A stretch of 64,000 bases of DNA, from the NCBI GenBank assembly GCA_023898625.1, contig CP060231.1, positions 609,890 through 673,889 on the forward strand, in the 5' to 3' direction. Every line of letters begins with the position of its first letter. The first letter of the stretch is position 1. The notes under the pieces are model-generated. The model saw only the letters and a program-made list of their open reading frames with translations, was not told the origin of the DNA and searched no databases. The position numbers and the translations under genes were made by a program. The stretch comes from Candidatus Nomurabacteria bacterium. Its GTDB lineage: Bacteria; Patescibacteriota; Saccharimonadia; Saccharimonadales; JAGQNJ01. Shown in pieces: positions 9,277-63,564 of the stretch.

Positions 9277-9298
9277 AAAATTACGGTATATTAGAGAA

Positions 9299-10441
9299 GT
9301 GACTGTTTATTTAGATTACGCATCCACTACTCCAGTTGATGAGCGAGTAGTACAAGCAATGCAACCATATTTAGCCGATAAGTTTTATAATCCTTCGGCA
9401 CAATATTTAGTTGCAAAGGATGTTAGGCGTGATATTAATCAAGCTCGTGAAGATGTTGCTAAAGTTATCGGTTCCAAACAGAGTGAGATAGTTTTTACTA
9501 CAGGAGCAACAGAAGCGAATAATTTGGCTATCAGTGGTGTGATGGAGTGCTTTCCAGGCAAAAACTTGGTAGTAAGTTCAATAGAACACGATTCTGTTAT
9601 TGAGCCAGCTAAAAAATATAAACACAGTTTAGTAACGGTTGATGAATCTGGTATTGTTGACCCAGAATCGCTAAGGTCAGCTATTACTGATGATACGGTT
9701 CTGGTTAGCATAATGCAGGCTAATAATGAGATAGGCGTTGTTCAGCCCATAAAATTGATAGCCGAATTAATAGCAGAAATTAAGGTTAAGCGCCGTAAAA
9801 ACAACAATGAGCTACCTCTTTATTTACATACTGATTCTGCGCAAGCTACAAACTATCTAGATATCCATGTTAGTAGATTGGGTATTGACCTGATGAGCGT
9901 TAATGGTGGAAAGATTTATGGCCCTAAACAGACTGGTTTTTTGTTTATCAAGACGGGAGTTAAAATAATCGGTCAAATACAGGGGGGTGGTCAAGAAAGA
10001 GGTTTGAGGAGTGGTACAGAAAATGTACCAGGAATAGTTGGCTTAGCTACGGCACTAAAAATTACCACTGAGATGCGTAGCCAGGAGTCTCGCAGAATGG
10101 CTGAGCTACAACATTATTTCTACAGAAAGCTCGATGAAATTCTACCAAATTTACACGTTAATGGTAGTAAAAAATTACGGCTTCCAAATAATATTCATGT
10201 TACTATTCCGGGCATTGACAACGAGCGTGCAATGATGGAACTCGATGAGCGTGGGGTTATGTGTGCGGTTGGATCAGCCTGTAGTGCAAGTAAAGACGAA
10301 CCATCACATGTTCTAAAGGCAATTGGCTTAAGTGATGAGCTAGCGCGAAGCAGTCTGCGGTTTACTATGGGTCGTGCAACAACAAAAAATGATATAGATT
10401 TTGCCATATCAGCACTGAAAGATAGTTGCCAACAAGCATAA
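9299..10441 (+). CDS. Cysteine desulfurase (class V aminotransferase, NifS/IscS type)
   Basis: 380 aa. FTTGATEANN, PLP-lysine context SVNGGKIYGPKQTG, SGTENVPGIVG, active-site GSACSA. GTG start 9299 lies 6 nt after TATATT (9287-9292). Confidence 0.9.
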   Translation: MTVYLDYASTTPVDERVVQAMQPYLADKFYNPSAQYLVAKDVRRDINQAREDVAKVIGSKQSEIVFTTGATEANNLAISGVMECFPGKNLVVSSIEHDSVIEPAKKYKHSLVTVDESGIVDPESLRSAITDDTVLVSIMQANNEIGVVQPIKLIAELIAEIKVKRRKNNNELPLYLHTDSAQATNYLDIHVSRLGIDLMSVNGGKIYGPKQTGFLFIKTGVKIIGQIQGGGQERGLRSGTENVPGIVGLATALKITTEMRSQESRRMAELQHYFYRKLDEILPNLHVNGSKKLRLPNNIHVTIPGIDNERAMMELDERGVMCAVGSACSASKDEPSHVLKAIGLSDELARSSLRFTMGRATTKNDIDFAISALKDSCQQA

Positions 10442-10487
10442 CAAGCATTATTATATAGATATACGTAAACAGGTGGATTGATACAGG

Positions 10488-11075
10488 GTGGAACTTTGGC
10501 AGTTATTACTGATTATCGGAACTTTACTTGCAACCATGGTTGCCTTTGTTTGGACCGCCATAAAACTAAGTTCAATTAACCAGCCTAACACAGGAACGCA
10601 TCGTACTAACGCTACCGAAGCTGTAAATTTGGCTGTGAATCAAGCCTTTACAGATGATTTTCGTGAAGAGTTACGACAACGTGCTCGTCAACAATTTGAA
10701 AAGTTGATACACGAAAATGCTATGTTTTTGCAACAAGATATTAGAATGAGCGCTTCACAACTCGAAGATTTTATGAAGCGTGAGATATTTGCGACTCTCC
10801 AGCAAGAATTAGCCAAACATCATGAAGCAGTTTCACAGACCAGGCAAATGTTATCTGATTCGGTTGCAAAAAGCCAGGCAGAATTAAACAGTCAAATAAA
10901 TTCCGAAAAGGAAAGGCGAATCAAAGAATTAGATACTCAAATCTCTGAAATTGTAAAGAAATATGTTGTAACTGCTGTTGGCGACATAATGACCACAGAA
11001 CAACAAGTTGCATTAATCGTGGATGGCTTAAATGCCCAAAAAGCAAATATTATGGAGGACATTCGGCGTGTCTAA
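10488..11075 (+). CDS. Hypothetical N-terminally membrane-anchored coiled-coil protein
   Basis: 195 aa. N-terminal TM (LLLIIGTLLATMVAFVWTAI) followed by a charged helical region. AGGTGGA upstream of the GTG start. Confidence 0.55.
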   Translation: MELWQLLLIIGTLLATMVAFVWTAIKLSSINQPNTGTHRTNATEAVNLAVNQAFTDDFREELRQRARQQFEKLIHENAMFLQQDIRMSASQLEDFMKREIFATLQQELAKHHEAVSQTRQMLSDSVAKSQAELNSQINSEKERRIKELDTQISEIVKKYVVTAVGDIMTTEQQVALIVDGLNAQKANIMEDIRRV

Positions 11076-11604
11076 TGACCAGCCTCCAAAGCTATTAGTA
11101 TTGCCAAGTTTTATTGTGTCAAAATCAGAAGTTCATCGATTGTTGTCCGAGCTACTTCAGATAGAAGACTTTTTATATAAAGCAGGTAATCGACAACCAG
11201 GCAGTAAATTATCTCTGCCTAAAACTACCGATGATTTAGATAAGTTTGCCGAAGCAAACAAAAGAAATGTCTTAAATCATGGACAAAGGATTGAAATGGC
11301 TAGATTTTTACGAGCAGTTTATAAATACGCTCCTGAGATAGGTGTAATTTTGCCATCTGGTTCAAACTCGAAGATACTAGACGGTATTACAAAATGGTTT
11401 AGGCAAAATATACATGCTCAGACTTTATTGGTAAGGTCAACGCAAAATAGACTCTCTGGAGGAGCAATTATCAGAATAAAACATAAAAGCTACGATTTTA
11501 GTTTGAATAATAGATTTACGTCAAATGATAATTTGTTGATTCGAGAATTATCTAATCACCCAAAACAAACTCAGAAATCAGACTCAAGAGCGAACTATTC
11601 ATAG
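11032..11604 (+). CDS. Hypothetical protein
   Basis: 190-aa ORF. The more likely start is GTG 11068, giving an 8-nt overlap with the upstream stop. No secure family assignment. Confidence 0.5.
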   Translation: MPKKQILWRTFGVSNDQPPKLLVLPSFIVSKSEVHRLLSELLQIEDFLYKAGNRQPGSKLSLPKTTDDLDKFAEANKRNVLNHGQRIEMARFLRAVYKYAPEIGVILPSGSNSKILDGITKWFRQNIHAQTLLVRSTQNRLSGGAIIRIKHKSYDFSLNNRFTSNDNLLIRELSNHPKQTQKSDSRANYS

Positions 11605-11633
11605 ATAATACCACCTCTGTTATAATATAATTC

Positions 11634-12686
11634 GTGAATCAGAACAACACTACCGTATATGTTGGCTTGAGTGGTGGAGTAGACTCGAGCGTATCGGCTA
11701 TGCTTTTGAAAGAGCAGGGGTTTAATGTCGTTGGTGTATATATGAAAAATTGGACAAAAAATCTACCAGGCTTTGAATGTCCATGGAAGGAAGATTTTCA
11801 AGACGCCAAGCGAATCGCAGTGCAACTTGGTATAGATTTCAAGGTATTCGACTTCGAGTCTCAGTATAAACAAAAGGTTGTCGATTATATGATAGCGGAA
11901 TACCAGGCTGGTAGGACACCAAACCCAGACATTATGTGCAACCAAGAAGTTAAGTTTAAGCTTTTCCTAGAAACTGCGCTAGCCGATGGCGCAGACATGA
12001 TTGCAACCGGGCACTACGCAAAAACTGAAAATGGCAAGTTGATGATCGCAAAGGATGATAATAAAGACCAGACATATTTTCTATACAGAGTTAACACCGA
12101 CGCATTACAAAAAACCATCTTTCCATTAGGTGACCTTACAAAAAATGAAGTTAGGCAATTGGCTAAGAATCATAAATTAGTAACCGCTAAAAAAAAGGAA
12201 AGTATGGGGATTTGTTTTGTTGGTAAAGTTGGCATTAAGGAATTTCTCGGTCAGTATGTAAAATCTGAGAGAGGTAATATAATCAATGAGGAAGGTAAGA
12301 TTGTTGGTGAACATGATGGGGCGATTTATTACACCATAGGCCAGAGGCATGGATTAGATATCGGAGGCGGGCTACCCTATTATGTTGTTGGTAAAGATAT
12401 GAACAAGAATGAGGTTTATGTTACTACCGACTTAAACGATCGACGTCTATGGAAAGATAAGCTAAAGTTAACGAATGTTCACTGGATCAACGGTATCCCA
12501 GACAAGCTTAATGTATTGGTTCGCACTCGTCATCGCGCACCACTAGTCTCTGGATTAATAGATTATGATAGTTCGAATAATTCACTCTCGGTGGCCTTAA
12601 ATAAGGAAGTTCGTGCCGTAACTCCTGGACAGTCAGCAGTAATTTATCAGGATGGTATCGTTCTGGGTGGTGGAATAATATATTAA
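11634..12686 (+). CDS. mnmA: tRNA 2-thiouridine(34) synthase MnmA
   Basis: 350 aa. PP-loop VGLSGGVDSSVSA, TPNPDIMCN, ATGHYA, KDQTYFLY. GTG start is 7 nt after TATAAT (11621-11626). Confidence 0.92.
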   Translation: MNQNNTTVYVGLSGGVDSSVSAMLLKEQGFNVVGVYMKNWTKNLPGFECPWKEDFQDAKRIAVQLGIDFKVFDFESQYKQKVVDYMIAEYQAGRTPNPDIMCNQEVKFKLFLETALADGADMIATGHYAKTENGKLMIAKDDNKDQTYFLYRVNTDALQKTIFPLGDLTKNEVRQLAKNHKLVTAKKKESMGICFVGKVGIKEFLGQYVKSERGNIINEEGKIVGEHDGAIYYTIGQRHGLDIGGGLPYYVVGKDMNKNEVYVTTDLNDRRLWKDKLKLTNVHWINGIPDKLNVLVRTRHRAPLVSGLIDYDSSNNSLSVALNKEVRAVTPGQSAVIYQDGIVLGGGIIY

Positions 12687-13175: not shown

Positions 13176-13208
13176 ATAGCCTCTGTTTACTGGTATAATA
13201 GGCAGGTT

Positions 13209-15095
13209 ATGAATGCACAACAAATCCGAAAAGCTTATTTAGAATTTTTCAAAAATCGTGAACATGCTCAGATCCCTAGGGCGCTATTGGTTCCGTATAA
13301 TGACCCAACCACCCTTTTTACTGGTAGCGGAATGCAACCACTCATACCATATCTATTGGGAGAATCTCACCAGAGCGGTACTAGGTTAGTTAATAGTCAG
13401 ACTTGTCTGCGAGCTCAAGACATCGATGATGTTGGCGATAATCGTCATACCACCTTTTTTGAAATGCTTGGCAACTGGAGCTTGGGTGATTACTTCAAGG
13501 AGCAACAAATTCGTTGGTTCTTTGAGTTTTTGGTTGACGTTGTTGGCCTGGATCCTACCAAGATATATGTAACTTGCTTTATTGGTAGCGAAAAAGATGG
13601 AATCCCAAGGGACGATGAAGCGGCAAAGATCTGGCAGGAGCTTTTTCAGGGCAAGGGCGTAAAGGCACAGATTGTCGAAATTGGCAGTCAGGCGGATGGT
13701 GACAAGCGTGGCATTAAACCAGGCGAGCGCATCTTTTTCTACGATGATGGAGAAAACTGGTGGAGTCGTGGTGGCGGTTTGGCGAAGACGCCGATCGGTG
13801 ACCCATGCGGTCCGGACAGTGAAGTGTTTTATGATTTTGGTGAGCAAAATCATGCAGATGGGTATGGATTGGCTCATCCTGCGAGTGATTCTGGCCGGTT
13901 TATGGAAATAGGCAATCAGGTGTTTATGCAGTATCGTCGTACAGAAGTTGGGTTTGAACCACTTGCTAAGCCAAATGTCGACTTTGGCGGTGGACTAGAG
14001 CGAATCGGAGCTGCAGCTATTGATAGTCCAGATGTTTTTAAGATAAGCATAATGTGGCCAATCATCGAAAAGTTACAAGAAATTAGTGGCAAGACATACG
14101 AGAGCCATACCGCAAGCATGCGAGTGATTGCCGATCATTTGCGCGCATCGACATTCTTGGCGGTTGATGGTGTAAAGCCTAGCAACAAAGAGCAGGGTTA
14201 TGTGATGCGACGCTTGGTGCGCAGAGCGGTTCGTTTTGCCTTTGAGCTGGGGATTGAGCAGAATTTTTTGCAAGAAATTGTGCCAGTTATAACAAGTTTA
14301 TACCAGGATGACTATCCAGAAGTGGCCGAGAAACGACAAGAAGTTGTTGATGTACTGGTGCGCGAAGAAAAGGCGTTTCGTCAGACTTTGCGCAAGGGCA
14401 TTCGAGAATTTGATAAGCTGACTGAAGGTGGATTGACCGGCAAAGAAATATTTACCCTATATGACACTTACGGCTTCCCAGTAGAACTTAGTGTAGAAGA
14501 AGCGTTCAAACAAGACATTCGTGTTTCGGATAATTGGCGAGAAGTGTTTGATAAACTAATGAAAGAACAACGTGAACGTTCACAGACTGCTTCAAAGGGG
14601 ACTTTCAGGGGTGGCTTAGGTGGTCAGACTTTGCAACATAAGAAGTACCACACCGCTACGCACCTGATGTATCAAGCACTGCGAGATGTGCTCGGCGACC
14701 ACGTTATTCAGAGGGGTAGCAACATCACCGAAGAGCGTCTACGATTCGACTTTAGTCACCCAGAAAAGGTAACCAGAGAACAGTTGGACGCTGTGGAGCA
14801 AATTGTCAATGACCAGATAGCCAAAGACTTAAAAGTATCCTGGGCAGAGTATCCAACAGCCGAAGCGACGGGCAAACTGGGAGCTCTGGGTCAGTTTGGT
14901 GATCGTTATGGCGATACGGTGAAGGTCTATAAAATGATTGCCGACGGCGCAGAAAAGCCATTTAGTTTTGAGATTTGTGGTGGCCCACATGTTGATCATA
15001 CCTTGCAATTGTTCGAGGGAAACAAGCGATTTAAGATTACTAAAGAAGAGTCTTCATCGGCTGGCGTACGTCGTATCAAAGCTGTGCTCCAGTAG
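13209..15095 (+). CDS. alaS: Alanine--tRNA ligase, short form (no C-terminal C-Ala/DHHA1-like domain)
   Basis: 628 aa. FTGSGMQPL, RHTTFFEMLGNWSLGDYFK catalytic-core motifs. Editing-domain HTATHLMYQALRDVLG and CGGPHV. The ORF ends right after the editing domain. Confidence 0.9.
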   Translation: MNAQQIRKAYLEFFKNREHAQIPRALLVPYNDPTTLFTGSGMQPLIPYLLGESHQSGTRLVNSQTCLRAQDIDDVGDNRHTTFFEMLGNWSLGDYFKEQQIRWFFEFLVDVVGLDPTKIYVTCFIGSEKDGIPRDDEAAKIWQELFQGKGVKAQIVEIGSQADGDKRGIKPGERIFFYDDGENWWSRGGGLAKTPIGDPCGPDSEVFYDFGEQNHADGYGLAHPASDSGRFMEIGNQVFMQYRRTEVGFEPLAKPNVDFGGGLERIGAAAIDSPDVFKISIMWPIIEKLQEISGKTYESHTASMRVIADHLRASTFLAVDGVKPSNKEQGYVMRRLVRRAVRFAFELGIEQNFLQEIVPVITSLYQDDYPEVAEKRQEVVDVLVREEKAFRQTLRKGIREFDKLTEGGLTGKEIFTLYDTYGFPVELSVEEAFKQDIRVSDNWREVFDKLMKEQRERSQTASKGTFRGGLGGQTLQHKKYHTATHLMYQALRDVLGDHVIQRGSNITEERLRFDFSHPEKVTREQLDAVEQIVNDQIAKDLKVSWAEYPTAEATGKLGALGQFGDRYGDTVKVYKMIADGAEKPFSFEICGGPHVDHTLQLFEGNKRFKITKEESSSAGVRRIKAVLQ

Positions 15096-15098: not shown

Positions 15099-15893
15099 CT
15101 ATTCATTTACGGTAACTTTGAGAGATTTGATCATCGAGATAAATTCGGGGTCATCACTTATGTCAGAATATCTAGTAACTCTCTGATTCGCTTTTTTGCT
15201 TATTATAGATACATCAAGTTCGTTTTCTGAGTCACCTAACTTGCCAACCATAGTATAGTACCCGATTTTGCTTGAACAAACATCCGTACCACTTGAACCA
15301 ACATCTTTGTTTTCAATATTAAAGTCGGTAGTATCTATTCCAATACCGGATTCCGGATAATCAGGTGCCGTTGTTGTGTATTCCGAAAAATATAGTCCTG
15401 GCGTAGAGGTTGCGATTTTCTGAGTTAAAGTAAAAGTATAATTATCCGGAGTACAATCACCACCATAACCAAGATTGCCCTTAATTGATAAATTGTTGCC
15501 TTTAGGTGAAGTTATGGTGGTATCAGGGAGATTAAATTCGTTGGGTTTTTCTAGAACCGTCCATGTCGAAGGATGGGTAACCTCAACAGTTGTAACTCCT
15601 TGATTAACCTTTGTTATTTTTGTTGAGGATACCTCACTGGAGTGGGGCGATTCTTTACTACCCCCGATATGGGATACTTGATTCGAAGCAATAATCAGGG
15701 CAATTAAAACAATAGAACCTAAAATTATTGTCATCACAACAGCAACCACAATCGCAATTATCAGCTTTTTATTTGAATGTTTATTTGAGGTTTGCGCCTC
15801 TTGTATTAAGCCAGGGGTATCTGGTGTTGGCATCGGTTGTTGAGGTTCAGGAGTTCGGCTATTAATGTCTTCTTGATGTTGTTGTAGATCCAT
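15099..15893 (-). CDS. Hypothetical membrane-anchored protein
   Basis: 264 aa. Pro/Gln-rich N-terminus, one TM (LIIAIVVAVVMTIILGSIVLIALIIA), extracytoplasmic remainder. Confidence 0.6.
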   Translation of the reverse strand: MDLQQHQEDINSRTPEPQQPMPTPDTPGLIQEAQTSNKHSNKKLIIAIVVAVVMTIILGSIVLIALIIASNQVSHIGGSKESPHSSEVSSTKITKVNQGVTTVEVTHPSTWTVLEKPNEFNLPDTTITSPKGNNLSIKGNLGYGGDCTPDNYTFTLTQKIATSTPGLYFSEYTTTAPDYPESGIGIDTTDFNIENKDVGSSGTDVCSSKIGYYTMVGKLGDSENELDVSIISKKANQRVTRYSDISDDPEFISMIKSLKVTVNE

Positions 15894-16035
15894 TTGTTTA
15901 TTTTAGCATAAACACGAAGCCTTAAAATTGATACCCTAACTTGAAAAAATGAACGATCGTGTATTATTGTCGAAATAGAGTGTATAATGAACAAAAGATG
16001 TTAATAAAAAAAGATAAGTAGTAGGTCTGAACATA

Positions 16036-16260: not shown

Positions 16261-16311
16261 GGGAAAAGTTGTTTTAGAGTACGACAGGACAGTGTTATAC
16301 TGGTTATACTT

Positions 16312-17610
16312 ATGCTTGATAAGTTCAAGAAGATAAAGGTTCCCAAAATACCAAAGTCTAATAAAAACGTGCCTAAACGTAAACCAGAACGTTATGTTGT
16401 TGGGCTTGATATAGGTACAGAGTATGTAAAGGCTCTTATAGCTAAGGTAGAAAACAATCAAGCTGAGATAATTGGCATGGGAAGAGCACATCAACAACTT
16501 GGTGATATGCAGGCCGGGGCAATTGCAGATATATCTGCTGTTGTTGGCAATTGCGATACGGCACTTGCTCAAGCAGAACAGCAAGCAGGGCTAAGCGCCA
16601 GGACTGTTGTTATTGGTATTGCTGGTGAGCTAGTAAAGGGGACAACCACGACTGTCAGATATAGACGAAATCAGTCAAGTAGAGAGCTAACAATAGATGA
16701 AGTTGAACGAATAATAAAAAAAGTTCAAGAACGTGCCGAGCAAAAAGCTCGCGATAGTTTGGCCTGGGAATTAGGTGGCAAGCAAGTGGATATCCGTTTA
16801 GTAAATAGCGCTCTGGTGAGTATAGAAATTGATGGCTATAAAGTAACTAATCCTGTTGGATTTCAAGGTAGGGATGTCGTAGTTCAGTTATATACCGCAT
16901 TTGCTCCGTTAGTCCACATTGGCGCACTTGAACGAACAGCACAAGAATTAGATCTTGATTTGCTGGCGGTTGCCGCTGAACCTTTTGCAGTTGCTAGGTC
17001 GGTGATTGGTGATGATACCGGCTCCAATAAAAGTGCCATCTTGATGGATGTGGGTGGTGGCACAACAGACATTGCTGTAATAAACGACGGAGGAGTTCAA
17101 GGAACAAAGATGTTTGGAATTGGCGGTCGGGCCTTTACGAGGTCTGTCGAGCGTGAACTTGGTGTAGAGTTTGGGGAGGCTGAGGAATTAAAAACAGGCC
17201 TAACAACACACCAAACTTCTGGAGATAAGGCCAAAGAAGTTCAACAAGCGCTCGTAAAAACACTTGGAGTCTGGACTCACGGAGTTGAGCTGGCACTAAG
17301 TGAATTTGATAACGTGGACAATCTACCTCAACGTGTATTGCTTTGTGGTGGTGGTTCATCTTTATCGTTGATTCCAGCACGGCTCAGCAAAACCAAGTGG
17401 TATAAAGACCTACCTTTCACCAAACAGCCAATTATTCAGCATATCAATCCTGATCAGGTAGTTGGTATTACAGATAGTACCGGCAAGGTCAATGATCATA
17501 CCTATATTACTGCATTGGGTTTAGTAAGAGTTGGCATTGACTCACTTCAGCAAGGAAATAATGATCAAGATTCAATTAAAGCAAGAATTGATAGGATGCT
17601 TAAGGTATAA
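16312..17610 (+). CDS. ftsA: Actin-like ATPase of the FtsA/PilM family (FtsA-like)
   Basis: 432 aa. GLDIGTEYVKALIA (phosphate 1), DVGGGTTDIAV (phosphate 2), LCGGGSSL (adenosine), C-terminal amphipathic IKARIDRMLKV resembling an FtsA membrane-targeting helix. Confidence 0.65.
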   Translation: MLDKFKKIKVPKIPKSNKNVPKRKPERYVVGLDIGTEYVKALIAKVENNQAEIIGMGRAHQQLGDMQAGAIADISAVVGNCDTALAQAEQQAGLSARTVVIGIAGELVKGTTTTVRYRRNQSSRELTIDEVERIIKKVQERAEQKARDSLAWELGGKQVDIRLVNSALVSIEIDGYKVTNPVGFQGRDVVVQLYTAFAPLVHIGALERTAQELDLDLLAVAAEPFAVARSVIGDDTGSNKSAILMDVGGGTTDIAVINDGGVQGTKMFGIGGRAFTRSVERELGVEFGEAEELKTGLTTHQTSGDKAKEVQQALVKTLGVWTHGVELALSEFDNVDNLPQRVLLCGGGSSLSLIPARLSKTKWYKDLPFTKQPIIQHINPDQVVGITDSTGKVNDHTYITALGLVRVGIDSLQQGNNDQDSIKARIDRMLKV

Positions 17611-17613
17611 TAA

Positions 17614-19278
17614 TTGACGATGAGTTCTGCAAATCAAAAAGATACGATATATATTGACGTAGACGAAGAGATAACTTCTATTGTTGACAAGGTTGCCAAC
17701 AGTAAATCAAAAATCGTGGCTCTTGTTTTGCCAAAAAGAGCTGTTGTGTTGCAGAGTATTGTAAACATGAAGTTACTAAAACGAGCGTCTGACGATGCTG
17801 GCAAGAGGATTGTTTTGATTACTTCTGAACAAGGTGTGGTGCCATTAGCTGGTGCAGTCGGTGTTTATGTTGCAAAGAACCTGCAATCTAAGCCAGAAAT
17901 ACCACCAGCACCAGAAGGACCAACCAGTGATGATGAACTGCTTGAATCAGAAGATGTTCAGCCAGAAGTCATCGATCAATCAAAGACGGTTGGTGAGTTG
18001 TCGGGTGACGAGGAAGCCGTTTTTGAGTCGGAATCTCCTCTAGAGTCGTCTGAGTCAAAAAAATCTAAAAACAAGTCAAGTACTTCAAAAAAATCTAAAA
18101 AAGACAAAAAAAACAAAGTTCCAAATTTTGACTCATTTAGAAAAAGGGTGATAATTGGTGCGATAGTTGTTTGCGGATTGTTAGCCTTAGCATATTTTGC
18201 ATTCTTTATTGCCCCCAAGGCTACCCTAACTATTGTTACCGAAACATCAACAACAAATAGTTCTATAGATTTTACAGCCTCACCTTCAGCTCAAGCTAGC
18301 GATATAGATAAAGCAATTTTATCCGCAAAAGAAGTAGAAGAGTCCAAAAATGATACCCAAAAGGCGCCGGCAACCGGCCAAAAAGATCTAGGCGCAAAGG
18401 CAACGGGTAGCGTTGCTTTATCGATATCTTGTGGTTCAGTTTCTGGTTTACCTCCAACTATTCCAGCTGGTACCGGCGTAAGTACAGGTAGCCTAACCTA
18501 TATTACAAACAGCTCAACATCTCTAACCACACCTAGTTTTAGTGGAGGCTGTAAGTTTGTTTCTACGGTAGTGGTGACTGCTCAAGCAAATGGTGAGCAA
18601 TATAACATTGATAGCGGAAAGACATTTACAGTTGCAGGATTCTCTTCTGTTACTGGTTCAAATTCATCAGCCTTTACTGGAGGGTCATCAAAAGTAGCCA
18701 AAGTTGTCAGTCAGCAGGATGTAGATTCAGCCAAACAAAAATTAACGGATAACTCTCAAGAAGTCAAAGAAAACTTAAAAAAACAACTCGAGTCATCTGG
18801 CTATTATGCATTGGTTGATACCTTTACCACCAAGTCTGATAAGGTTACCGTGAGTCCTGAGGTTGGCCAAGAAGCGTCAGAAGTGACAGTAACAGCCGAA
18901 AGAACTTATACGATGCTCGGAGTGAAAAATGATGACCTAAAGGCGCTTGTAGAGCATAGCGTTCAAGATGAACTAAATAGTAAAAGTATGCAAATTCAAG
19001 AAGATGGAGTTGACCAGGCTGTGTTCAGGGTTGGGACCCGCCAAAGCAATGGTGACATGACAGTTACTATGCAAACACAGGTGGTTATGGGGCCAAAGAT
19101 AAATGAGGAACAAGTCAAGAAGGACATTGCCGGTAAAAAACGAGGTGATGCACAAGATGCAGTAAAACAGATTGATGGCGTTAAGGATGCCAGAGTAGAG
19201 TTTAGTCCATTTTGGGTTAACGTTGTTCCAAAAGATACTAATAAGATAACCATCAAGTATGAAGAGGCAAATAATTAG
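17614..19278 (+). CDS. Hypothetical bitopic membrane protein (cytoplasmic N-domain, acidic/Lys-rich linker, one TM, large external domain)
   Basis: 554-aa ORF. ATG 17620 is the more likely start (8 nt after TATAAT 17606-17611). TM IIGAIVVCGLLALAYFAFFIA. Stop overlaps the ruvX GTG by 1 nt. Confidence 0.65.
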   Translation: MTMSSANQKDTIYIDVDEEITSIVDKVANSKSKIVALVLPKRAVVLQSIVNMKLLKRASDDAGKRIVLITSEQGVVPLAGAVGVYVAKNLQSKPEIPPAPEGPTSDDELLESEDVQPEVIDQSKTVGELSGDEEAVFESESPLESSESKKSKNKSSTSKKSKKDKKNKVPNFDSFRKRVIIGAIVVCGLLALAYFAFFIAPKATLTIVTETSTTNSSIDFTASPSAQASDIDKAILSAKEVEESKNDTQKAPATGQKDLGAKATGSVALSISCGSVSGLPPTIPAGTGVSTGSLTYITNSSTSLTTPSFSGGCKFVSTVVVTAQANGEQYNIDSGKTFTVAGFSSVTGSNSSAFTGGSSKVAKVVSQQDVDSAKQKLTDNSQEVKENLKKQLESSGYYALVDTFTTKSDKVTVSPEVGQEASEVTVTAERTYTMLGVKNDDLKALVEHSVQDELNSKSMQIQEDGVDQAVFRVGTRQSNGDMTVTMQTQVVMGPKINEEQVKKDIAGKKRGDAQDAVKQIDGVKDARVEFSPFWVNVVPKDTNKITIKYEEANN

Positions 19279-20767: not shown

Positions 20768-21535
20768 TTAGTTTTCATTGTAATTTTTTGTACCAATAAT
20801 GGTAAAACTTTCTGATGCTTGAGATCGCAATAATCCGTATGAAATTAATTGGTAAAAACGCCATGCTACATGAGCCGGTAAGAAAAAACTAAAGTAAGTA
20901 CACTGGTAATAGGGTATAACTTTTTGAACTGTAACATTGTTAGATTCTAATAGGCGAGTTATTTTATCTGGAGTACATTGATTGTAATATGCCGGGAACC
21001 CTTGAGCATGTTCCGTCCCGGGGAAAATACTAAAAAGGAGTTTTCGTTTAATCGATTCTGGGAGCCATCTGTTGATTATTGCAAATAATGCGTATCGTGA
21101 TGGAATAAATAATGCGATTGTTCCTTGATTTGCAGTAAGTTCTGAGATATTTTTGATGGCCTGGGCATTGTTTTTTACATGCTCAAGTACTGCTTCGCAA
21201 ATAACCACAGTTGCGTTAATTCCTTTTGTTTTTGTATCACTACTTCCAATGTCTGCAACCATAGTTTTGTCATAAATATTTGGTGGAGCTTGTTCGAGTT
21301 CGTGCTTATCAATATCTATTCCGATTATATACTGTGATTGTTTTGGGATCTCAGTTCCGATAAACGGACGCTTGCCAGCGCCTACATCACAAACGCGACT
21401 GTTTTTTCGAATCAAGTCAGGAACTACGTTGTGCGTAAAGTCTAGTAATCCATCTATTCTCCAAGACTTGGGTACGAATAAATTATCGAATTTCTGGCAA
21501 GCAACTTGATTCCAGTGCACAAACTTTTGAAACAT
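20768..21535 (-). CDS. Class I SAM-dependent methyltransferase
   Basis: 255 aa. Motif I VCDVGAGKRPF, acidic loop GIDID, post-I region. No substrate assignment possible. Confidence 0.75.
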   Translation of the reverse strand: MFQKFVHWNQVACQKFDNLFVPKSWRIDGLLDFTHNVVPDLIRKNSRVCDVGAGKRPFIGTEIPKQSQYIIGIDIDKHELEQAPPNIYDKTMVADIGSSDTKTKGINATVVICEAVLEHVKNNAQAIKNISELTANQGTIALFIPSRYALFAIINRWLPESIKRKLLFSIFPGTEHAQGFPAYYNQCTPDKITRLLESNNVTVQKVIPYYQCTYFSFFLPAHVAWRFYQLISYGLLRSQASESFTIIGTKNYNEN

Positions 21536-51451: not shown

Positions 51452-51456
51452 AATCT

Positions 51457-51464: not shown

Positions 51465-51476
51465 ATATGTCAATAT

Positions 51477-51552: not shown

Positions 51553-51591
51553 ATCAGACTCAAATGATTTTCAAGCAGTATTGTTTCTAAC

Positions 51592-51617: not shown

Positions 51618-52205
51618 GTTAAGATATATATAATGAAGATGCTTATTATTGAGGGAATAGCGACAAGCGGCAAATCCAGTCTAATAAAGAAATTGACCGA
51701 GCTGCTAGGCGAGAAAAGGCTACTCATATTCGGTGAACCAGCTACCCATATTCCAATTATGGAAAAAACAGACGAGCTGCACGTTGAGTTTTTCAAATCG
51801 CTCATAGACGATGCTGTCAAAGCTGATGCTGACCTTGTGATATTTGATAGGCTACACTACACGCAGGCATATCGAGCAAAAGCAAGCTTAGTTGAATACG
51901 CTGAAATTGATGATTTACTGTCAAAACAAGATACGCTTGTGGCATATTTGCGGGTAGATGAGAGTGCAATTGCCGAACGGGTCAGACTTGCTACTGAACA
52001 TCGTGATAGGACGTGGGGCGATTATGTACTTACTAAGGGCAAGACTTTTGATGAAATTGCCGAGTATTATGTCGCTCAACAGAGTAGTCAGCTTCAACTA
52101 CTTAGTCAGACTAAGCTCGCTTATAAAGTATTCAACACTACTCAACACAACTACCAAACCATAGCTGAACAGATTATCAACGACTGGTACAAAAAGCCTG
52201 CCTGA
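51594..52205 (+). CDS. P-loop kinase-like protein (thymidylate/deoxynucleoside kinase-like fold; function uncertain)
   Basis: ORF from 51594, but the probable start is ATG 51633 or 51639 (MKMLIIEGIATSGKSS: Walker A close to the N-terminus, as in dNK/TMK-type kinases). Confidence 0.6.
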   Translation: MSRARLIFVKIYIMKMLIIEGIATSGKSSLIKKLTELLGEKRLLIFGEPATHIPIMEKTDELHVEFFKSLIDDAVKADADLVIFDRLHYTQAYRAKASLVEYAEIDDLLSKQDTLVAYLRVDESAIAERVRLATEHRDRTWGDYVLTKGKTFDEIAEYYVAQQSSQLQLLSQTKLAYKVFNTTQHNYQTIAEQIINDWYKKPA

Positions 52206-52532
52206 AAATGCTTGGCGAAACTGTTCTCATAAATTAGGTATATAGACGGCGGAGTGTAGAATGGCAGGATAAAGAGTGACCCCGCCCTGTACTTGGGCAT
52301 AATAATAGGCATAGCTGTTCAATGGTTTGAGACTCTTTAATGGTCATATGCTAAGTTGTCGTCTAATCGGGATTATTCGGCTCAGTGTTTGAGCTTATAG
52401 TCCTCTTGAGCAAATGTAGCTGACGTTTGAAGTGTGTCAACTATGTTGCACTAAATCAGAACAAAAAGATTTTGTAACAGTCTAGTTTGAACATTCAGAC
52501 TCATTTCGGGTCTTTTTTGTTATCATTAGATA

Positions 52533-53111
52533 ATGATGCAACTAAAACAAGTGATATATAAGAAACCGCCAAAAAACGGGAAGTTTTATATTGTTGCTAT
52601 TGATGGTCGTGGTGGTGCCAGTAAGACTACGCTAACCGAATATATAGAAACACTTCTGCCCGATTTTAGTGTATTGAATGGTGATGAGTACTTTGAGCCT
52701 GACGATAATACAATCGCATTCGGCTCATTTAATGATGAGCGTTTTGAGAAGGAAGTGTTATCACAATTGCGAGAAGAAAAATCTGAGTTTATTTATCATC
52801 CATATCGGTGGGGCGACAAAGAGCCAATGTCTGATAAAAACCTAAAGATAACAGCAGGAATTATTGTTGAAAGAAGTGGCAGTTTTGCCTTCAACCTAAA
52901 TTTCGATTTTAAGATTTGGGTTGAAACACCAGCTAAACTTGCACTACAGAGAGGCCAGGAGCGTGATGAGATGCCACTTGAACAAGGCTATCGTTCTTGG
53001 AAAGAAGTATGGCAGCCACAGGAAGACGCTCACTTCAATAAGGTCAAACCATTGGAAACCGCAGATATAGTGATTGATGGAACAAGATCATTCGAAGAGC
53101 AAGTCGCCTGA
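52533..53111 (+). CDS. P-loop NTPase, uridine-kinase/PRK-like family
   Basis: 192 aa. IVAIDGRGGASKTTLTEYI Walker A, GDEYF, IIVERSG, KIWVETP, ADIVIDG. ATG is 6 nt after TATCAT (52521-52526). Confidence 0.6.
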   Translation: MMQLKQVIYKKPPKNGKFYIVAIDGRGGASKTTLTEYIETLLPDFSVLNGDEYFEPDDNTIAFGSFNDERFEKEVLSQLREEKSEFIYHPYRWGDKEPMSDKNLKITAGIIVERSGSFAFNLNFDFKIWVETPAKLALQRGQERDEMPLEQGYRSWKEVWQPQEDAHFNKVKPLETADIVIDGTRSFEEQVA

Positions 53112-53359: not shown

Positions 53360-53388
53360 TTGCATGATACCCCCAGGGGGTATATCAT
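53360..53388 (+). promoter_or_regulatory. csoR promoter (TTGCAT-17-TATCAT) with an embedded 17-bp perfect palindrome, ATACCCCC-A-GGGGGTAT (53367-53383); CsoR-type operator
   Basis: The GC-rich palindrome fills the -35/-10 spacer. CsoR operators in Gram-positives are C/G-tract palindromes of this type. ATG 53395 lies 6 nt after the -10. Confidence 0.75.
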
Positions 53389-53394
53389 AGAGTT

Positions 53395-53679
53395 ATGATT
53401 AAAGATTTAAAACAACGCGCATTACATCGGTCGAAGATAATAGAAGGTCAAATTAAGGGTCTGCAAAAAATGATTGAGAATGATGAGTATTGCATGGATA
53501 TATTAACTCAGAATTTGGCTATCCAAAAATCACTCGCATCACTAAATAAACTTGTACTTGAAAATCATGTCCGTACTCATATTAAAAGTGGGCTTCAATC
53601 AACTTCTGAAAAAGAACAAGAAACTGCAATAGATGAACTTTTGTTGCTTTATGAACTTAACAATATTCGCGGGAAATAA
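53395..53679 (+). CDS. csoR: Metal-sensing repressor of the CsoR/RcnR/FrmR family
   Basis: 94 aa. RSKIIEGQIKGLQKMIENDEYCMDILTQ...LENHVRTH (Cys and His ligand positions). Directly upstream of a copper ATPase. Confidence 0.85.
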   Translation: MIKDLKQRALHRSKIIEGQIKGLQKMIENDEYCMDILTQNLAIQKSLASLNKLVLENHVRTHIKSGLQSTSEKEQETAIDELLLLYELNNIRGK

Positions 53680-58006: not shown

Positions 58007-58549
58007 ATGAGCAAAAATCTAGACCCAAATCAATTTGAAAATATTGAGTATATACCTGATTCATCACAGGCCGAATCACTGTATTTTCCGGCTTTCCCAG
58101 CTGTAGAGTCTGGCAAATTAGACATACATTCTTTGGATCCTCATAACCCGCAGTTTGCTGGAATGATGGTTCGCAATGGGCTTATTCCGGATCAAGCTGG
58201 GTCATTGGTGTTGCCAGGCGACGGGTTTGGTGCGTATGATTTAGTAAAAGGGTATTTAGACGGAGACGAGTTGCGTGTTTTTCCTGCAGATAAATCTGCT
58301 GTTGATAAAGAGAGTCGAAGAATTAATTCGTCAATCGGGTTAGTTATATTATCGAACTTTAACGACGGGACTATTCGTCCAGTTGCTGAAGTGGTTGACG
58401 TGTCAAGGACAGACTGGAATCGTGGATATCGAAGTATGGGCACCTGTGCGTTGAGGCCGTTTGGTATTAATTCACAGATTTTCGGAGTTGAAGACTTGTG
58501 CAAGAACGACGGCACAATAATTGCAAAATTACCAAAAAGATATTTCTAG
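58007..58549 (+). CDS. Hypothetical protein (180 aa)
   Basis: AAGGAG SD upstream of the ATG. No motif recognised. Confidence 0.55.
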   Translation: MSKNLDPNQFENIEYIPDSSQAESLYFPAFPAVESGKLDIHSLDPHNPQFAGMMVRNGLIPDQAGSLVLPGDGFGAYDLVKGYLDGDELRVFPADKSAVDKESRRINSSIGLVILSNFNDGTIRPVAEVVDVSRTDWNRGYRSMGTCALRPFGINSQIFGVEDLCKNDGTIIAKLPKRYF

Positions 58550-58596
58550 CCAGCCTGTCTATCTGATAAAATACCATGGTAGCTCTCTGGTATTTT

Positions 58597-58670
58597 GGCG
58601 CGTTGGCCGAGAAGTTAGGTACAGGTCTGCAAAACCTGTTAGACGGGAGCGTTACCCGTACGCGCCTCCA
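58597..58670 (+). tRNA. tRNA-Cys (anticodon GCA), CCA encoded, atypical D and T loops
   Basis: Acceptor GGCGCGT/ACGCGCC. Discriminator T (U73, as expected for Cys). Anticodon arm CAGGT-CTGCAAA-ACCTG. T arm ACGGG-AGCGTTA-CCCGT. D region GCCG-AGAAGTT-AGGT. Missed by the ORF track, which places two spurious ORFs here. Confidence 0.75.
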
Positions 58671-58787
58671 AATTATGTCGTTAAGACTTTTAGTAGTTCG
58701 GGGAATGTTGGGTCCCAAAAATGATATTTGTCATTAAATATATGAGCAGTTGCGCTAGGGATATCTGCTTGGAATTTAGCAATCTCA

Positions 58788-59261
58788 TTAAATGGGTACT
58801 ATAGGGTCGTTTTTGCTGTGAAAAAGATGTATGTTATCGCTACTTTTAATAATCTTTTTAGCTGATTTAATTTTAAAACTACCCATTTCTTCTTTTGATT
58901 CGTCGTTATAACCAGGAGCTATGAGTATAATACGTTTGGCTTTATTTTTTAGCGGATTCTTCTGTAGATATTTTACTAGGAACATTCCGCCTAAACTGTG
59001 ACCAACTAGTTGAAAATCTGACGATAGCAAACTTAGCATCTTTTCGAAGTAAGTAGACCATTCTAAGAATTTTGCATTTGCTGAATTCGGCATTGTCGGA
59101 GTTAAAACGTCGTAGGTAGGAAGTTCGCCTGCTATCCAGCTTCGCCAGTTTTGATTATAAATTAGATTAGCATAGTCAAGTTTGTGCTGTTTCAAATATT
59201 TCAGATAAGCGCTGTAAGTAGAGAAGCTGTTGCCTCCGTGAATTATCAAGATTTGTTTCAC
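58788..59261 (-). CDS. Alpha/beta serine hydrolase (YdeN/RBBP9-like)
   Basis: 157 aa. ILIIHGG, nucleophile elbow LVGHSLGG, late HSKNDPIVP. Confidence 0.7.
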   Translation of the reverse strand: MKQILIIHGGNSFSTYSAYLKYLKQHKLDYANLIYNQNWRSWIAGELPTYDVLTPTMPNSANAKFLEWSTYFEKMLSLLSSDFQLVGHSLGGMFLVKYLQKNPLKNKAKRIILIAPGYNDESKEEMGSFKIKSAKKIIKSSDNIHLFHSKNDPIVPI

Positions 59262-59323
59262 ATTTTTAGTATATCAGATGTTATAATAATGAAATGCACT
59301 TGACGCGAAGGTCTTTTGCTAAT

Positions 59324-59411
59324 GGGCGAGTGGCGGAATTGGTATACGCGACGGACTTAAAATCCGTTGGCTGAATAAGCCTTGAGAGTTCGAGTCTCTC
59401 CTCGCCCACCA
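59324..59411 (+). tRNA. tRNA-Leu (anticodon TAA), CCA encoded
   Basis: Acceptor GGGCGAG/CTCGCCC. Anticodon arm ACGGA-CTTAAAA-TCCGT. Long variable arm. T arm GAGAG-TTCGAGT-CTCTC. Confidence 0.9.
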
Positions 59412-59561
59412 AATTGGTACTAAAATGGGTTCTAGCCTGGACGTAAAAACTCACCGAAGAGAAACTTAATTAATATGGCGGCGAGTTGTGTCGGAAACAC
59501 GTGCGACACAGATTGTCGTACATTAGTTTTATGAAAAATAGCTCATGACATAGCCAAAAAC

Positions 59562-61863: not shown

Positions 61864-61972
61864 TTTTAGTGATCCTATAAATAGTATAAACCATAAGCTA
61901 GATTATCTATAATGGTTGCAACAAACTATTAACAGCGTGATACAATATATTTATGATAAATAAAGGAATCAG

Positions 61973-62527
61973 ATGATGGTGTTAATAATAATTGGCGTAA
62001 TAGTAGTTATCGGCATAGTGGTTGCACTTATTTATAATGGTTTAGTTAGATCAAAGGTTCGAGTTGACGAAGCCTGGAGTGATATTACCGTTCAGCTCAA
62101 AAGACGAACTGATTTAATCCCAAACCTTGTTGAAACCGTTAAGGGATATGCAAAACATGAGAAGAGTGTATTTGAAGAAGTAACCAAAGCTCGCACTGCT
62201 ATCATGGATGCTAAAGGGGTTAAAGATACCGCACATGCTGATAACATGTTTGAGGGTGCGCTGAAGAGTTTGTTTGCCGTAGCAGAAGCATACCCAGACC
62301 TAAAGGCGAATGAAAATTACAAACAATTACAAGAAGAGCTTGTTGACACAGAGGATAAAATTCAGGCGTCTCGACGGTTTTACAATGGAGCCGTGCGAGA
62401 TTTGAATACTAAAATTCAAGTTTTCCCGACAAACATTTTCGCTGGAATGCTAGGGTTTAGTGCTCGTGAGTTTTTTGAAGTTGAAGATCGTAAATCTATA
62501 GAAGAACCAGTCCAAGTAAAACTTTAG
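61973..62527 (+). CDS. lemA: LemA-family protein
   Basis: 184 aa. N-terminal TM, YNGLVRSKVRVDEAWSDI, RRFYNGAVRDLNT. Confidence 0.88.
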   Translation: MMVLIIIGVIVVIGIVVALIYNGLVRSKVRVDEAWSDITVQLKRRTDLIPNLVETVKGYAKHEKSVFEEVTKARTAIMDAKGVKDTAHADNMFEGALKSLFAVAEAYPDLKANENYKQLQEELVDTEDKIQASRRFYNGAVRDLNTKIQVFPTNIFAGMLGFSAREFFEVEDRKSIEEPVQVKL

Positions 62528-62658
62528 TTAAAGACTTAGGAATTTTGCCTATTTGGCTGAACAAAATTTAACAGAATAGGTTTGGCTTGTAGTACTTGTA
62601 TTGTTATACGAAAAGAGTTGTTTAGCTAGATAGTTTGTTTTTTTAGGTTCTTCATTTT

Positions 62659-63564
62659 GTGACTTCAAAAACTAAAATAGGTATAATAGTTTCTATGTAT
62701 AGTGAGATTTCTGCAAATAAACGAAAAACCGTATTTATGATGTTTTTCTTTATTGTGTTGATTTCTGGGTTGGCCTGGGCAATAACTAGCTTGCTTCAGT
62801 TAGATCAATATGTGACATATTATGTTGTGATAGGGGCATTAGTGTATGTACTGGTGAGTTATTATTCTAGTTCCAAGATGATGTTGAGTATCAATGGAGC
62901 AAAACCAATTTCAAAAAAAGATAACCCAAGAGTCTATAGAATTGTTGAAAACCTTGCGATAACAGAAGGCTTACCGATGCCTAAAGTCTATGTCATTAAC
63001 GATCCTGCACTGAATGCTTTTGCGACTGGACATAATCCAAATTCTGCATCTGTGGCTGTAACCACGGGATTGTTAGAAGTTTTGAATGATGCGGAGCTAG
63101 AAGGCGTGATGGCGCATGAAATGGGGCATGTAAAGAACTATGATATTCGCGTATCGTTGGTAGCTTTTGCGCTTGTAGCAGTCATCGGCATCATGTCAGA
63201 CATAATACTGAGATTGAGTTGGTTTGCCGATGATGAAGATAATCAATTTACTATTTTGTTTGGGCTTATTGGTGCATTGCTGGCGCCACTGGTGGCTGGG
63301 TTGATACAGTTAGCGGTTTCTCGCAAACGAGAGTACTTGGCCGATGCAACAGGTGCGTTAACAACCAGGTATCCTCAAGGACTAGCCAGTGCACTCAAAA
63401 AAATTGGATCTGATGGTGGGATTATGAAAAAACAAAATAGCTCAACTGCTCATCTTTTTTTTGCAAATCCACTAAAAAAAGGTAGCCTGAGTGGTTTGTT
63501 CAGTACGCATCCACCCATTGAGGAGCGTATAAAGCGGCTGAACAACATGGAGGATGCAGTTTAA
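62659..63564 (+). CDS. htpX: Zinc metalloprotease HtpX (M48)
   Basis: HEMGHVKNYD, TM pairs, EYLADATGA, HPPIEERI. The ORF opens at GTG 62659, but ATG 62695 lies 7 nt after TATAAT (62682-62687) and is the likelier start. Confidence 0.9.
   Translation: MTSKTKIGIIVSMYSEISANKRKTVFMMFFFIVLISGLAWAITSLLQLDQYVTYYVVIGALVYVLVSYYSSSKMMLSINGAKPISKKDNPRVYRIVENLAITEGLPMPKVYVINDPALNAFATGHNPNSASVAVTTGLLEVLNDAELEGVMAHEMGHVKNYDIRVSLVAFALVAVIGIMSDIILRLSWFADDEDNQFTILFGLIGALLAPLVAGLIQLAVSRKREYLADATGALTTRYPQGLASALKKIGSDGGIMKKQNSSTAHLFFANPLKKGSLSGLFSTHPPIEERIKRLNNMEDAV

Follow-up and report, generated by a model that had tools for sequence, protein, structure and literature searches.

The stretch of DNA examined here, called the window throughout, is 64 kb of contig CP060231.1 (positions 609,890 to 673,889 of the forward strand; assembly GCA_023898625.1, Candidatus Nomurabacteria bacterium), and our subject is a −10-like hexamer that recurs directly ahead of its start codons. 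The window has a GC content of 40.6%, and most of its genes lie on the plus strand. A preliminary description had claimed that at least 11 genes carry such a hexamer 6–9 nucleotides (nt) before the start codon with no Shine-Dalgarno (SD) sequence in between. We found all 11 hexamers and start codons in place, separated in the order below by gaps of 6, 7, 9, 8, 7, 8, 7, 8, 6, 6 and 7 nt, and neither GGAG, GAGG nor AGGA occurs in the gap at any of the 11 sites, in agreement with that claim. The sites are:

9287 to 9301, plus strand, cysteine desulfurase: TATATT at 9287–9292, 6-nt gap, GTG at 9299; the upstream gene stops 22 nt before the start.
11618 to 11636, plus strand, mnmA: extended −10 TGtTATAAT at 11618–11626, 7-nt gap, GTG at 11634; the MnmA profile aligns from residue 7–8.
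13191 to 13211, plus strand, alaS: extended −10 TGgTATAAT at 13191–13199, 9-nt gap, ATG at 13209; the profile aligns from residue 1.
17606 to 17622, plus strand, membrane or cell-division-cluster protein: TATAAT at 17606–17611, 8-nt gap, ATG at 17620; the hexamer is probably coincidental.
25273 to 25291, plus strand, sbcB: extended −10 TGgTACACT at 25273–25281, 7-nt gap, ATG at 25289, in an 85-nt divergent intergenic region.
39664 to 39680, plus strand, trhO: TAAAAT, 8-nt gap, GTG at 39678; best −35 match GTGACA, spaced 17 nt.
43130 to 43145, plus strand, uvrC: TATAAT, 7-nt gap, GTG at 43143; the entire intergenic spacer is 18 nt.
44663 to 44679, plus strand, M24B aminopeptidase: TATACT, 8-nt gap, GTG at 44677; 22-nt spacer.
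52497 to 52535, plus strand, P-loop kinase-like gene: terminator-like hairpin at 52497–52513, extended −10 TGtTATCAT at 52518–52526, 6-nt gap, ATG at 52533.
53360 to 53397, plus strand, csoR promoter: TTGCAT at 53360–53365, 17-nt spacer, TATCAT at 53383–53388, 6-nt gap, ATG at 53395.
62659 to 62697, plus strand, htpX promoter: −35 GTGACT at 62659–62664, 17 nt, TATAAT at 62682–62687, 7-nt gap, ATG at 62695.

The UvrC protein of the window was found identical on many metagenome contigs, and its nearest relatives among species-representative genomes all come from metagenome-assembled genomes labelled "Candidatus Saccharibacteria" or "Saccharimonadales", at identities from 96% down to 55%. AlaS (628 amino acids, aa) and UvrC (503 aa) are both short, which fits a genome of the Candidate Phyla Radiation (CPR). 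We accordingly assign the window to Candidatus Saccharibacteria (TM7, Patescibacteria/CPR). For comparison we gathered 86 related, syntenic loci. A genome scan with uvrC gave loci L007–L013, and a metagenome scan with mnmA gave L016–L095, which span 865 kb at 38–57% GC, have mnmA products 61–74% identical to that of the window, and yielded 792 open reading frames (ORFs) from 80 relatives. Because the metagenome loci are orthologous neighbourhoods, these ORFs were collapsed to 324 protein families for family-weighted counts. The statistics on leaderless-type starts cover the genes of the window and these related loci.

We measured the position of the hexamer on a set of starts chosen without regard to the motif, namely the longest-ORF start of each non-overlapping ORF (n = 52). 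A hexamer was counted if it had the form TAnnnT, matched TATAAT at five or more of six positions and ended 6–9 nt before the start codon. By this criterion 12 of the 52 window genes carry one, compared with 22 of 766 internal in-frame start-like codons (2.9%), 190 of 6559 start-like triplets of any kind (2.9%) and 18 of 509 intergenic ones (3.5%), an enrichment with a binomial p-value of 2e-7 and a Fisher odds ratio of 10. Among the 20 arrangements of the letters AAATTT, TATAAT came out on top at gap 6–9 with four occurrences, followed by TTATAA with two and AATTTA with one, and the other 17 had none; across the window as a whole TATAAT is among the rarer arrangements. When any start within the first 18 codons was allowed (n = 51), the count was 16, whereas 1000 local shuffles gave 4.7 ± 2.1 with a maximum of 12, and counts in eight control gap windows ranged from 3 to 10.

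The relatives gave the same picture. Across their 792 ORFs, exact TATAAT was counted 20, 21, 23 and 10 times for gaps of 6, 7, 8 and 9 nt, compared with roughly one per position elsewhere, and SD tetramers peak over the same distances. In family-weighted counts, hexamers with five or more matches number 44.0 against a background of 14.8, exact TATAAT 17.6 against 1.9, and hexamers also preceded by TGn 23.2 against 2.3, the last with a sharp mode at gap 6. A gap of 6 is the canonical distance from a −10 element to its transcription start site, so that the seventh base after the −10 is the first base of the start codon. SD tetramers, counted likewise, peak at gaps 5–10 (68.5 versus 11.7). The peak at gap 6–9 also holds in relatives with genomes of 45–57% GC. 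As a negative control we passed 150 kb of Bacillus anthracis pXO1 (GC 30–35%, SD-using) through the same pipeline and found 4 hexamers before 120 starts; neither a peak nor TGn appeared, and the SD peak was strong. Since pXO1 lacks the peak despite being more AT-rich, the pipeline does not manufacture the signal.

Two further ideas were considered and rejected. In-frame stops inside TAAAAT or TATAAT might shape the choice of longest-ORF starts; however, gaps 6, 7 and 8 are about equally populated, no peak appears at gaps 2, 5 or 11, the peak is tied to TGn, and pXO1 has none. GTG was considered as a mark of this class of genes, as 5 of the 11 window sites suggested; the family-weighted usage is 80% ATG and 12% GTG, the same as in the SD class.

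The window also holds leaderless-type starts that the preliminary description had missed, at 15893, 21535, 27416, 59261 and 59909 on the minus strand, together with conserved sites at gaps of 10–11 nt before 16312, 30551 and 45919. We list these with a possible start correction and one SD-led gene for contrast:

15891 to 15908, minus strand, 264-aa protein with no family match: TGcTAAAAT (hexamer 15900–15905), 6-nt gap, ATG at 15893; additional site.
21533 to 21548, minus strand, methyltransferase gene: TATAAT at 21543–21548, 7-nt gap, ATG at 21535; additional site.
27414 to 27433, minus strand, PGPGW-family membrane protein: TGaTAAAAT (hexamer 27425–27430), 8-nt gap, ATG at 27416; additional site.
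59259 to 59276, minus strand, serine hydrolase gene: TGaTATACT (hexamer 59268–59273), 6-nt gap, GTG at 59261; additional site.
59909, minus strand: start of a further leaderless-type gene; additional site.
16293 to 16314, plus strand, FtsA-like gene, near-leaderless: TGtTATACT (hexamer 16296–16301), 10-nt gap, ATG at 16312; predicted leader of 3–4 nt.
30534 to 30553, plus strand, uvrA, near-leaderless: TATAAT at 30534–30539, 11-nt gap, ATG at 30551.
45880 to 45921, plus strand, holin_4_2-family membrane protein, near-leaderless: TTGCCA at 45880–45885, 17 nt, TAAAAT at 45903–45908, 10-nt gap, ATG at 45919.
51617 to 51641, plus strand, gene with a Walker A motif, possible start correction: TGtTAAGAT (hexamer 51620–51625), 7-nt gap, ATG at 51633; second ATG at 51639.
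36868 to 36907, plus strand, bL25 ribosomal protein, SD-led contrast: TATAAT at 36870–36875, 29-nt gap with GGAGG at 36894–36898, ATG at 36905.

A tally of 51 window genes gives about 15 of leaderless type, 3–4 near-leaderless and about 13 SD-led, the rest being overlapping, coupled or unclear. Seven of the leaderless-type sites (9299, 11634, 13209, 39678, 43143, 44677 and 53395) are well supported by conservation or independent anchors, and 25289, 52533 and 62695 are supported by local features (TGn, −35, terminator, profile-fixed start).

Taken together, these results lead us to propose, with a probability of about 80%, that the hexamers are −10 boxes abutting start codons and that they drive leaderless-type expression alongside SD-led genes; we infer the transcription start point and the mode of translation from the spacing. 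The minimal promoter would consist of a sigma-70-type −10 element, TAnAAT and often TGnTAnAAT, with a weak −35, placed 6–9 nt before ATG or GTG, and about 30% of the window's genes (15 of 51, with 3–4 more at slightly longer spacing) would use it. RNA polymerase usually initiates about 7 nt downstream of a −10; with a gap of 6–7 nt, transcription would thus start on the first base of the start codon, and with a gap of 8–9 nt, 1–3 nt ahead of it. Such a transcript would leave no room for an SD sequence, and the ribosome would thus initiate on a 5'-terminal start codon. Other genes would have a distal −10 and an SD-containing leader, or would rely on stop/start coupling. In tight gene arrays the module would fit spacers of 18–33 nt, its upstream part lying within the end of the preceding gene.

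Several observations weigh against this proposal. The TATAAT at 17606, offered by the preliminary description as a −10, reads GTA-TAA-T, the last sense codon and stop of the FtsA-like gene, and has no counterpart in 25 of 27 orthologues; a −10 stands at the equivalent position in 2 of 27, and most family members start 1–4 nt past the upstream stop or overlap it. This hexamer is probably coincidental, and because it is the unconserved end of the upstream gene and orthologue starts abut or overlap the stop, the 17620 gene is more likely to be translationally coupled than leaderless. A generic scan of the window for two-hexamer −35/−10 promoters returned 52 promoter-like sites against 52.8 expected, with no overall excess. 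We therefore regard the −35 evidence as weak and base the case on position, TGn and conservation; being uninformative in AT-rich DNA, the generic scan was dropped in favour of position-specific statistics. Individual window sites match the −35 at 1–5 of 6 positions, which is consistent with extended −10 promoters needing little −35. Six leaderless-type sites follow a gene of the same direction at 18–33 nt and have no terminator in the spacer, so that read-through transcripts probably also carry these six starts internally. Gaps of 8–9 nt, common in mnmA and alaS orthologues, predict leaders of 1–3 nt and not strictly none. Leaderless GUG mRNAs are poorly translated by Escherichia coli ribosomes and accepted by mycobacterial ones, and 5 of the 11 sites first listed start with GTG. 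Finally, the only start-site set that we found for Saccharibacteria (TM7x) comprises 188 sites from ordinary RNA sequencing and is described as imprecise (PMC12641261).

The geometry is conserved. Flanking DNA has diverged across the 86 related loci, yet the placement of the hexamer relative to the start is kept, and the pattern per family is bimodal and conserved, with either leaderless geometry or SD. In alaS, 39 of 40 orthologues have cTGtTAyAAT or cTGgTATAAT at gap 6–10, and none has an SD. Cysteine desulfurase orthologues mostly show TGGTATAAT, 6–7 nt and then GTG or ATG (at least 22 of 37, or 32 of 38 when nearby starts are allowed). All three trhO orthologues carry a box (TAAAAT at gap 9, TAGAAT at gap 6, TATACT at gap 9) before a conserved N-terminus, M/V-NKVILYYKF. 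For uvrC, 3 of 5 orthologues with protein identities of 55–96% are of leaderless type, with gaps of 6–7 nt; the boxes seen are TATAAT at gap 7 (twice), TATACT at gap 6, CATAAT at gap 6 and TATAAT at gap 11, with a further one displaced to gap 3. M24B aminopeptidase orthologues are of leaderless type in 2 of 4 cases (TATACT at gaps 8, 9 and 8, TAGAAT at gap 12, and no box in L012). The near-leaderless genes behave alike: orthologues of the 45919 family have TAGAAT, TACAAT or TATAAT at gap 8–11 and are of leaderless type, with gaps of 8–10 nt, in 3 of 4 cases, uvrA orthologues have TATAAT at gaps 11 and 8, and the FtsA-like family (L021–L092) keeps TATAAT 10–11 nt, rather than 6–9 nt, before ATG-GTA-TTA (MVLEK...). 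In several FtsA-like relatives an ATG overlaps the box (TATAATG), and automated callers therefore choose a start inside the promoter.

Other families keep an SD instead, namely those of bL25, 39445 (minus strand, SD kept in the orthologues) and 19678. The genes that the preliminary description had named as SD-led, 12756, 26888 (minus strand), 36905, 41454 and 56088, do have GGAGG, AAGGAG or AAGGA, and we conclude that both modes coexist. In bL25, a distal TGnTATAAT or TATACT and the GGAGG are both kept in three orthologues. A 16S 3' end, which would give the anti-SD sequence, was found in none of the related loci fetched. In CPR ribosomes bS1 is short, and it is only within a subgroup of Parcubacteria that the anti-SD motif is found less frequently (PMC9297842), data that are compatible with dual initiation modes here.

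The mnmA family contains both types: 21 of 78 orthologues are of leaderless type and 33 of 78 of SD type, according to the upstream neighbour. Where mnmA is free-standing we found TGnTAnAAT, 8–10 nt and ATG; where it abuts an upstream gene, GGAG or AGGAG lies within the 3' end of that gene. The initiation mode of mnmA thus appears to track gene neighbourhood, and the two modes would be interchangeable over short evolutionary distances. Beyond the individual families, we lean slightly towards the wider view that leaderless initiation from TGnTAnAAT is a principal and anciently conserved mode across Saccharibacteria, fixed at alaS, cysteine desulfurase, uvrC and trhO.

As a separate observation, L014, a locus of Candidatus Uhrbacteria, has TATAGT or TGgTATAAT 8–9 nt before ATG at 8723 and 11080; this is 2 of 15 ORFs, too few for inference beyond Saccharibacteria.

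The promoters could fire and most protein nevertheless come from read-through polycistrons by reinitiation, the leaderless transcripts being minor or condition-specific. The compact co-directional arrays suit this idea, as do the absence of any terminator seen between 8887 and 15095 or between 41454 and 48281 and the embedded SD of mnmA orthologues that abut a gene. However, alaS keeps the module, and never an SD, in nearly all of its relatives, and an internal AUG without SD 18–33 nt past a stop would be a poor site for reinitiation compared with the coupled junctions found here, which overlap or are 1–5 nt long. One such junction is that of copA, whose ATG (53685) lies 5 nt past the stop of csoR and is preceded by neither SD nor −10, and for that reason copA is probably translationally coupled to csoR; like the 17620 family, it lacks the motif. 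Nor does reinitiation apply where the upstream neighbour is divergent or distant. No fewer than six genes of leaderless type (15893, 21535 and 27416 on the minus strand; 25289, 39678 and 52533 on the plus strand) have a divergent neighbour 85–316 nt off, and 53395, 59261 (minus strand) and 62695 follow a co-directional gene at 167–300 nt, so that stop/start coupling cannot explain at least nine of the approximately 15. We give predominant reinitiation only a small chance.

The hexamers also have promoter-specific features. We aligned 177 start-proximal hexamers on the hexamer itself, with 2331 intragenic hexamers chosen by the same rule as controls. TGn precedes 118 of the 177 (67%) and 137 of the 2331 (5.9%), and in the window alone it is found at 7 of 16 sites against a baseline of 6.75% (p = 4e-5). 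Start-proximal hexamers are enriched for T at −5, T at −3 and G at −2, and TTG is enriched at −23 to −21 (49%, 46% and 38%), which corresponds to a 17-nt spacer. At hexamer positions outside the selection, T1, A4 and A5 reach 95%, 98% and 92%, compared with 76%, 70% and 83% in the intragenic controls. The TGn and −35 positions are contacts of sigma-70 regions 3.0 and 4.2 and have no role in ribosome binding. The same TGnTATAAT stands 23–30 nt upstream of SD-led genes (bL25, 41454 and, on the minus strand, 26888).

Two sites show further signals overlapping the box. The csoR product matches PF02583, and a P-type (E1-E2) ATPase gene lies downstream. An operator-like sequence, ATACCCCCAGGGGGTAT (53367–53383), fills the spacer between the −35 and the −10 of csoR and is a perfect 8+8 palindrome, ATACCCCC-A-GGGGGTAT. 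It agrees with the consensus of type-2 CsoR operators, ATATACCCCTNAGGGGTATAT, obeys the TAC-N9-GTA rule (PMC3902906) and is a candidate CsoR operator within the csoR-copA promoter. In this it resembles the CsoR-repressed copper-efflux promoters described there; unlike them, the candidate operator would occupy the −35/−10 spacer, and the −10 stops 6 nt short of the csoR ATG; because of that placement the autoregulated csoR transcript would be leaderless. Upstream of the 52533 gene, the terminator-like hairpin at 52497–52513 (−14.6 kcal/mol, z = −4.3) has a T-run that merges into the extended −10 (TTTTTTGTTATCAT), so that 52497–52526 appears to be an example of overlapping terminator and −10 signals in a streamlined genome. 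A post-terminator transcript of the 52533 gene would have a leader of at most about 13 nt and no SD.

These features bear on the idea that the hexamers are not promoters but an AU-rich, non-SD translation signal on polycistrons, whether a site of the kind described for Bacteroidota, an S1-binding site or a landing pad for 70S scanning. The six sites close behind co-directional genes without a terminator would be expected on that account, as would an A/T-rich motif and a promoter scan without global excess. Against it, TGn and the TTG at 17 nt are read by RNA polymerase and not by ribosomes, the same motif stands well upstream of SD-led genes, at least nine genes are divergent from, or 85–316 nt away from, their upstream neighbour, a candidate CsoR operator overlaps one site, and the truly coupled genes (the 17620 family and copA) lack the motif. 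The odds of a translation signal are slim. The core of the preliminary description, that real −10 elements abut start codons, is thus supported by conservation, TGn, TTG at 17 nt, the candidate operator of csoR and the distal −10 of SD-led genes.

Leaderless-type expression also requires that the start codons be right, and we checked these against family profiles, the N-termini of orthologues and the gene calls made on identical public contigs. The public calls give the same starts for trhO, uvrC, the M24B aminopeptidase, the P-loop gene at 52533 and csoR; profile alignments or the N-termini of orthologues settle where alaS, mnmA, sbcB (25289), htpX (62695) and the membrane protein (17620) begin. 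Profiles align from residue 1–8 for alaS, mnmA, uvrC, trhO, cysteine desulfurase and htpX, and orthologue N-termini are kept from codon 2 (MNAQEIR, VNEKLQAK, MNKVILYYKF) while the DNA around the hexamers has diverged. On both grounds we conclude that the start codons are right.

Three of the start corrections suggested in the preliminary description agree with these comparisons. Position 5 of the SbcB profile falls on ATG 25289, the codon for residue 18 of the long ORF; position 2 of the HtpX profile falls on ATG 62695, the codon for residue 13 of its long ORF, and the long-ORF GTG at 62659 lies within the −35 GTGACT; orthologue N-termini (M..KD.IYID) agree with ATG 17620. Of the fourth, 51633 or 51639, ATG 51633 is plausible as the true start: MKMLIIEG leads directly to GIATSGKSS, the Walker A motif, and TGtTAAGAT ends 7 nt before the codon. 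Public gene calls use ATG 51594. To these we add 27416 (minus strand) in place of 27452 as the likely start of the PGPGW-family membrane protein; its L011 orthologue aligns only from residue 26 of the window protein, and has TATACT 7 nt before its second GTG.

The −10 boxes could be real and the start codons mis-assigned, with translation from a downstream codon behind an ordinary leader. Start codons in metagenome-assembled genomes are predictions, and several long-ORF starts in the window are wrong (17614, 25238, 62659, 27452 and probably 51594). Yet profiles begin at residue 1–8, N-termini such as MNAQEIR and VNEKLQAK are kept from codon 2, every correction shifts the start towards the −10 and never away from it, and no SD motif lies downstream of the −10; there is little chance that this account is correct. 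Chance matches in AT-rich intergenic DNA, to which the GC content of 40.6%, the 859 hexamers with five or more matches in the window and the accidental look of 17606 might point, are already refuted by the window statistics, the gap 6–9 peak in relatives of 45–57% GC, the co-occurrence of TGn and the peakless pXO1.

The architecture we propose has parallels in known systems. Mycobacterium tuberculosis and M. smegmatis (Cortes 2013; Shell 2015) and Deinococcus deserti (de Groot 2014), all cited in PMC6028130, reportedly have leaderless transcriptomes proven by differential RNA sequencing together with proteomics. The window resembles them in its TANNNT −10 about 6–7 nt from a predicted 5'-terminal ATG or GTG, in the inclusion of housekeeping genes and in GTG as a proposed leaderless start. 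Those genomes are GC-rich with a degenerate TANNNT, whereas the box here is a near-consensus TATAAT, usually with TGn, and its role is predicted from sequence. Extended −10 (TRTGn, or −16 region) sigma-A promoters of Gram-positives, which in Bacillus and Streptococcus drive leadered, strongly SD-dependent mRNAs, share the form TnTGnTAnAAT (T at −5, T at −3, G at −2) and a weak or dispensable −35; unlike those of Bacillus and Streptococcus, the box here abuts the start codon. The TG/TRTG motif is also discussed in PMC12641261.

Among the genome groups of GeneMarkS-2 (Lomsadze et al. 2018, PMC6028130), group C is described as having a Pribnow box 6–8 nt upstream of the start, SD at a similar distance for the remaining genes and 25–50% leaderless transcription. 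It is reported to be typical of Actinobacteria and Deinococcus-Thermus but seldom found among Proteobacteria or Firmicutes. The window is similar as far as that description goes, with a −10 localised 6–8 nt from the start, SD for others and a share of about 30% that falls within 25–50%. In a group C genome the signal would be expected at first genes of operons. Here at least nine of the approximately 15 sites follow divergent or distant neighbours, and six lie 18–33 nt behind a co-directional gene; unlike the group C genomes described, the module is also present in spacers that GeneMarkS-2 would count as operon-internal. The passages on group C assign neither CPR nor Saccharibacteria to it (PMC6028130). 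Group B, the Bacteroidota type, is described in the same source as having a motif before all genes, including operon-internal ones, which cannot be a promoter. The window shares with it many genes without SD and A/T-rich DNA upstream of starts; it differs from group B, as described, in the TGn and −35 features, in common SD-led genes, in coupled genes without the motif and in the distal motif of SD-led genes. A Bacteroidota-type non-SD signal is contradicted by the absence of the motif at coupled genes, by the TGn and −35 features and by the distal placement at SD-led genes.

A search of the available literature for leaderless mRNAs, −10-to-start spacing or TATAAT in Saccharibacteria, Patescibacteria or CPR returned no report, only incidental co-occurrences; a TM7x transcriptome preprint had no promoter or start-site content, and the Cell 2023 paper on Saccharibacteria genetics does not discuss leaders. 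We conclude that this is a known architecture in a phylum for which we found no report of it, and not a new mechanism.

A few further ORFs of the window deserve mention. At 51078–51593 on the minus strand, an ORF of 161–171 aa with no family match is called on identical public contigs (for example L001, 15310–15795). It overlaps tRNA-Phe (51092–51167) and tRNA-Gly (51477–51552), both encoded on the other strand, and was very likely called as a gene in error. The ORFs at 58521–58724 and 59281–59454 overlap tRNA-Cys and tRNA-Leu likewise. At 40687–41307 two ORFs overlap on opposite strands (147 aa on plus, 201 aa on minus), and public contigs differ on which is called; the minus-strand ORF is a real gene, because it has conserved orthologues (MPAYGNN...) in L008 and L009, and its start has neither −10 nor SD. 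A single ORF of 2585 aa (34–7791) runs from the first bases of the window and may perhaps encode a giant surface or adhesin-like protein.

Automated callers supply almost all annotation of CPR genomes, and with about 30% of starts behind a −10 and not an SD, start codons become correctable; within this window alone there are 4–6 likely miscalls, by long-ORF or public calls, among them 17620, 25289, 27416, 62695, 51633 and the spurious ORF over the tRNAs. If an independent promoter and start fit spacers of about 20 nt, many genes of apparent "operons" would be transcribed individually, and orthologues such as mnmA would flip between leaderless and SD-led initiation when the gene neighbourhood changes. 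Saccharibacteria have recently become genetically tractable with borrowed tuf and rpsJ promoter regions (PMC10633639), and for them the combination of TGnTATAAT, 6 nt and ATG, about 20 nt in all, would make a compact expression signal. A further question is how CPR ribosomes, with their short bS1 and several missing proteins (PMC9297842), handle two initiation modes. Saccharibacteria live on Actinobacteria, the classic leaderless phylum. If our proposal is true, they would be the first lineage of CPR/Patescibacteria shown to rely heavily on leaderless mRNAs, and heavy leaderless use would extend to a deep-branching, genome-reduced phylum, which bears on whether it is an ancestral trait or a product of streamlining.

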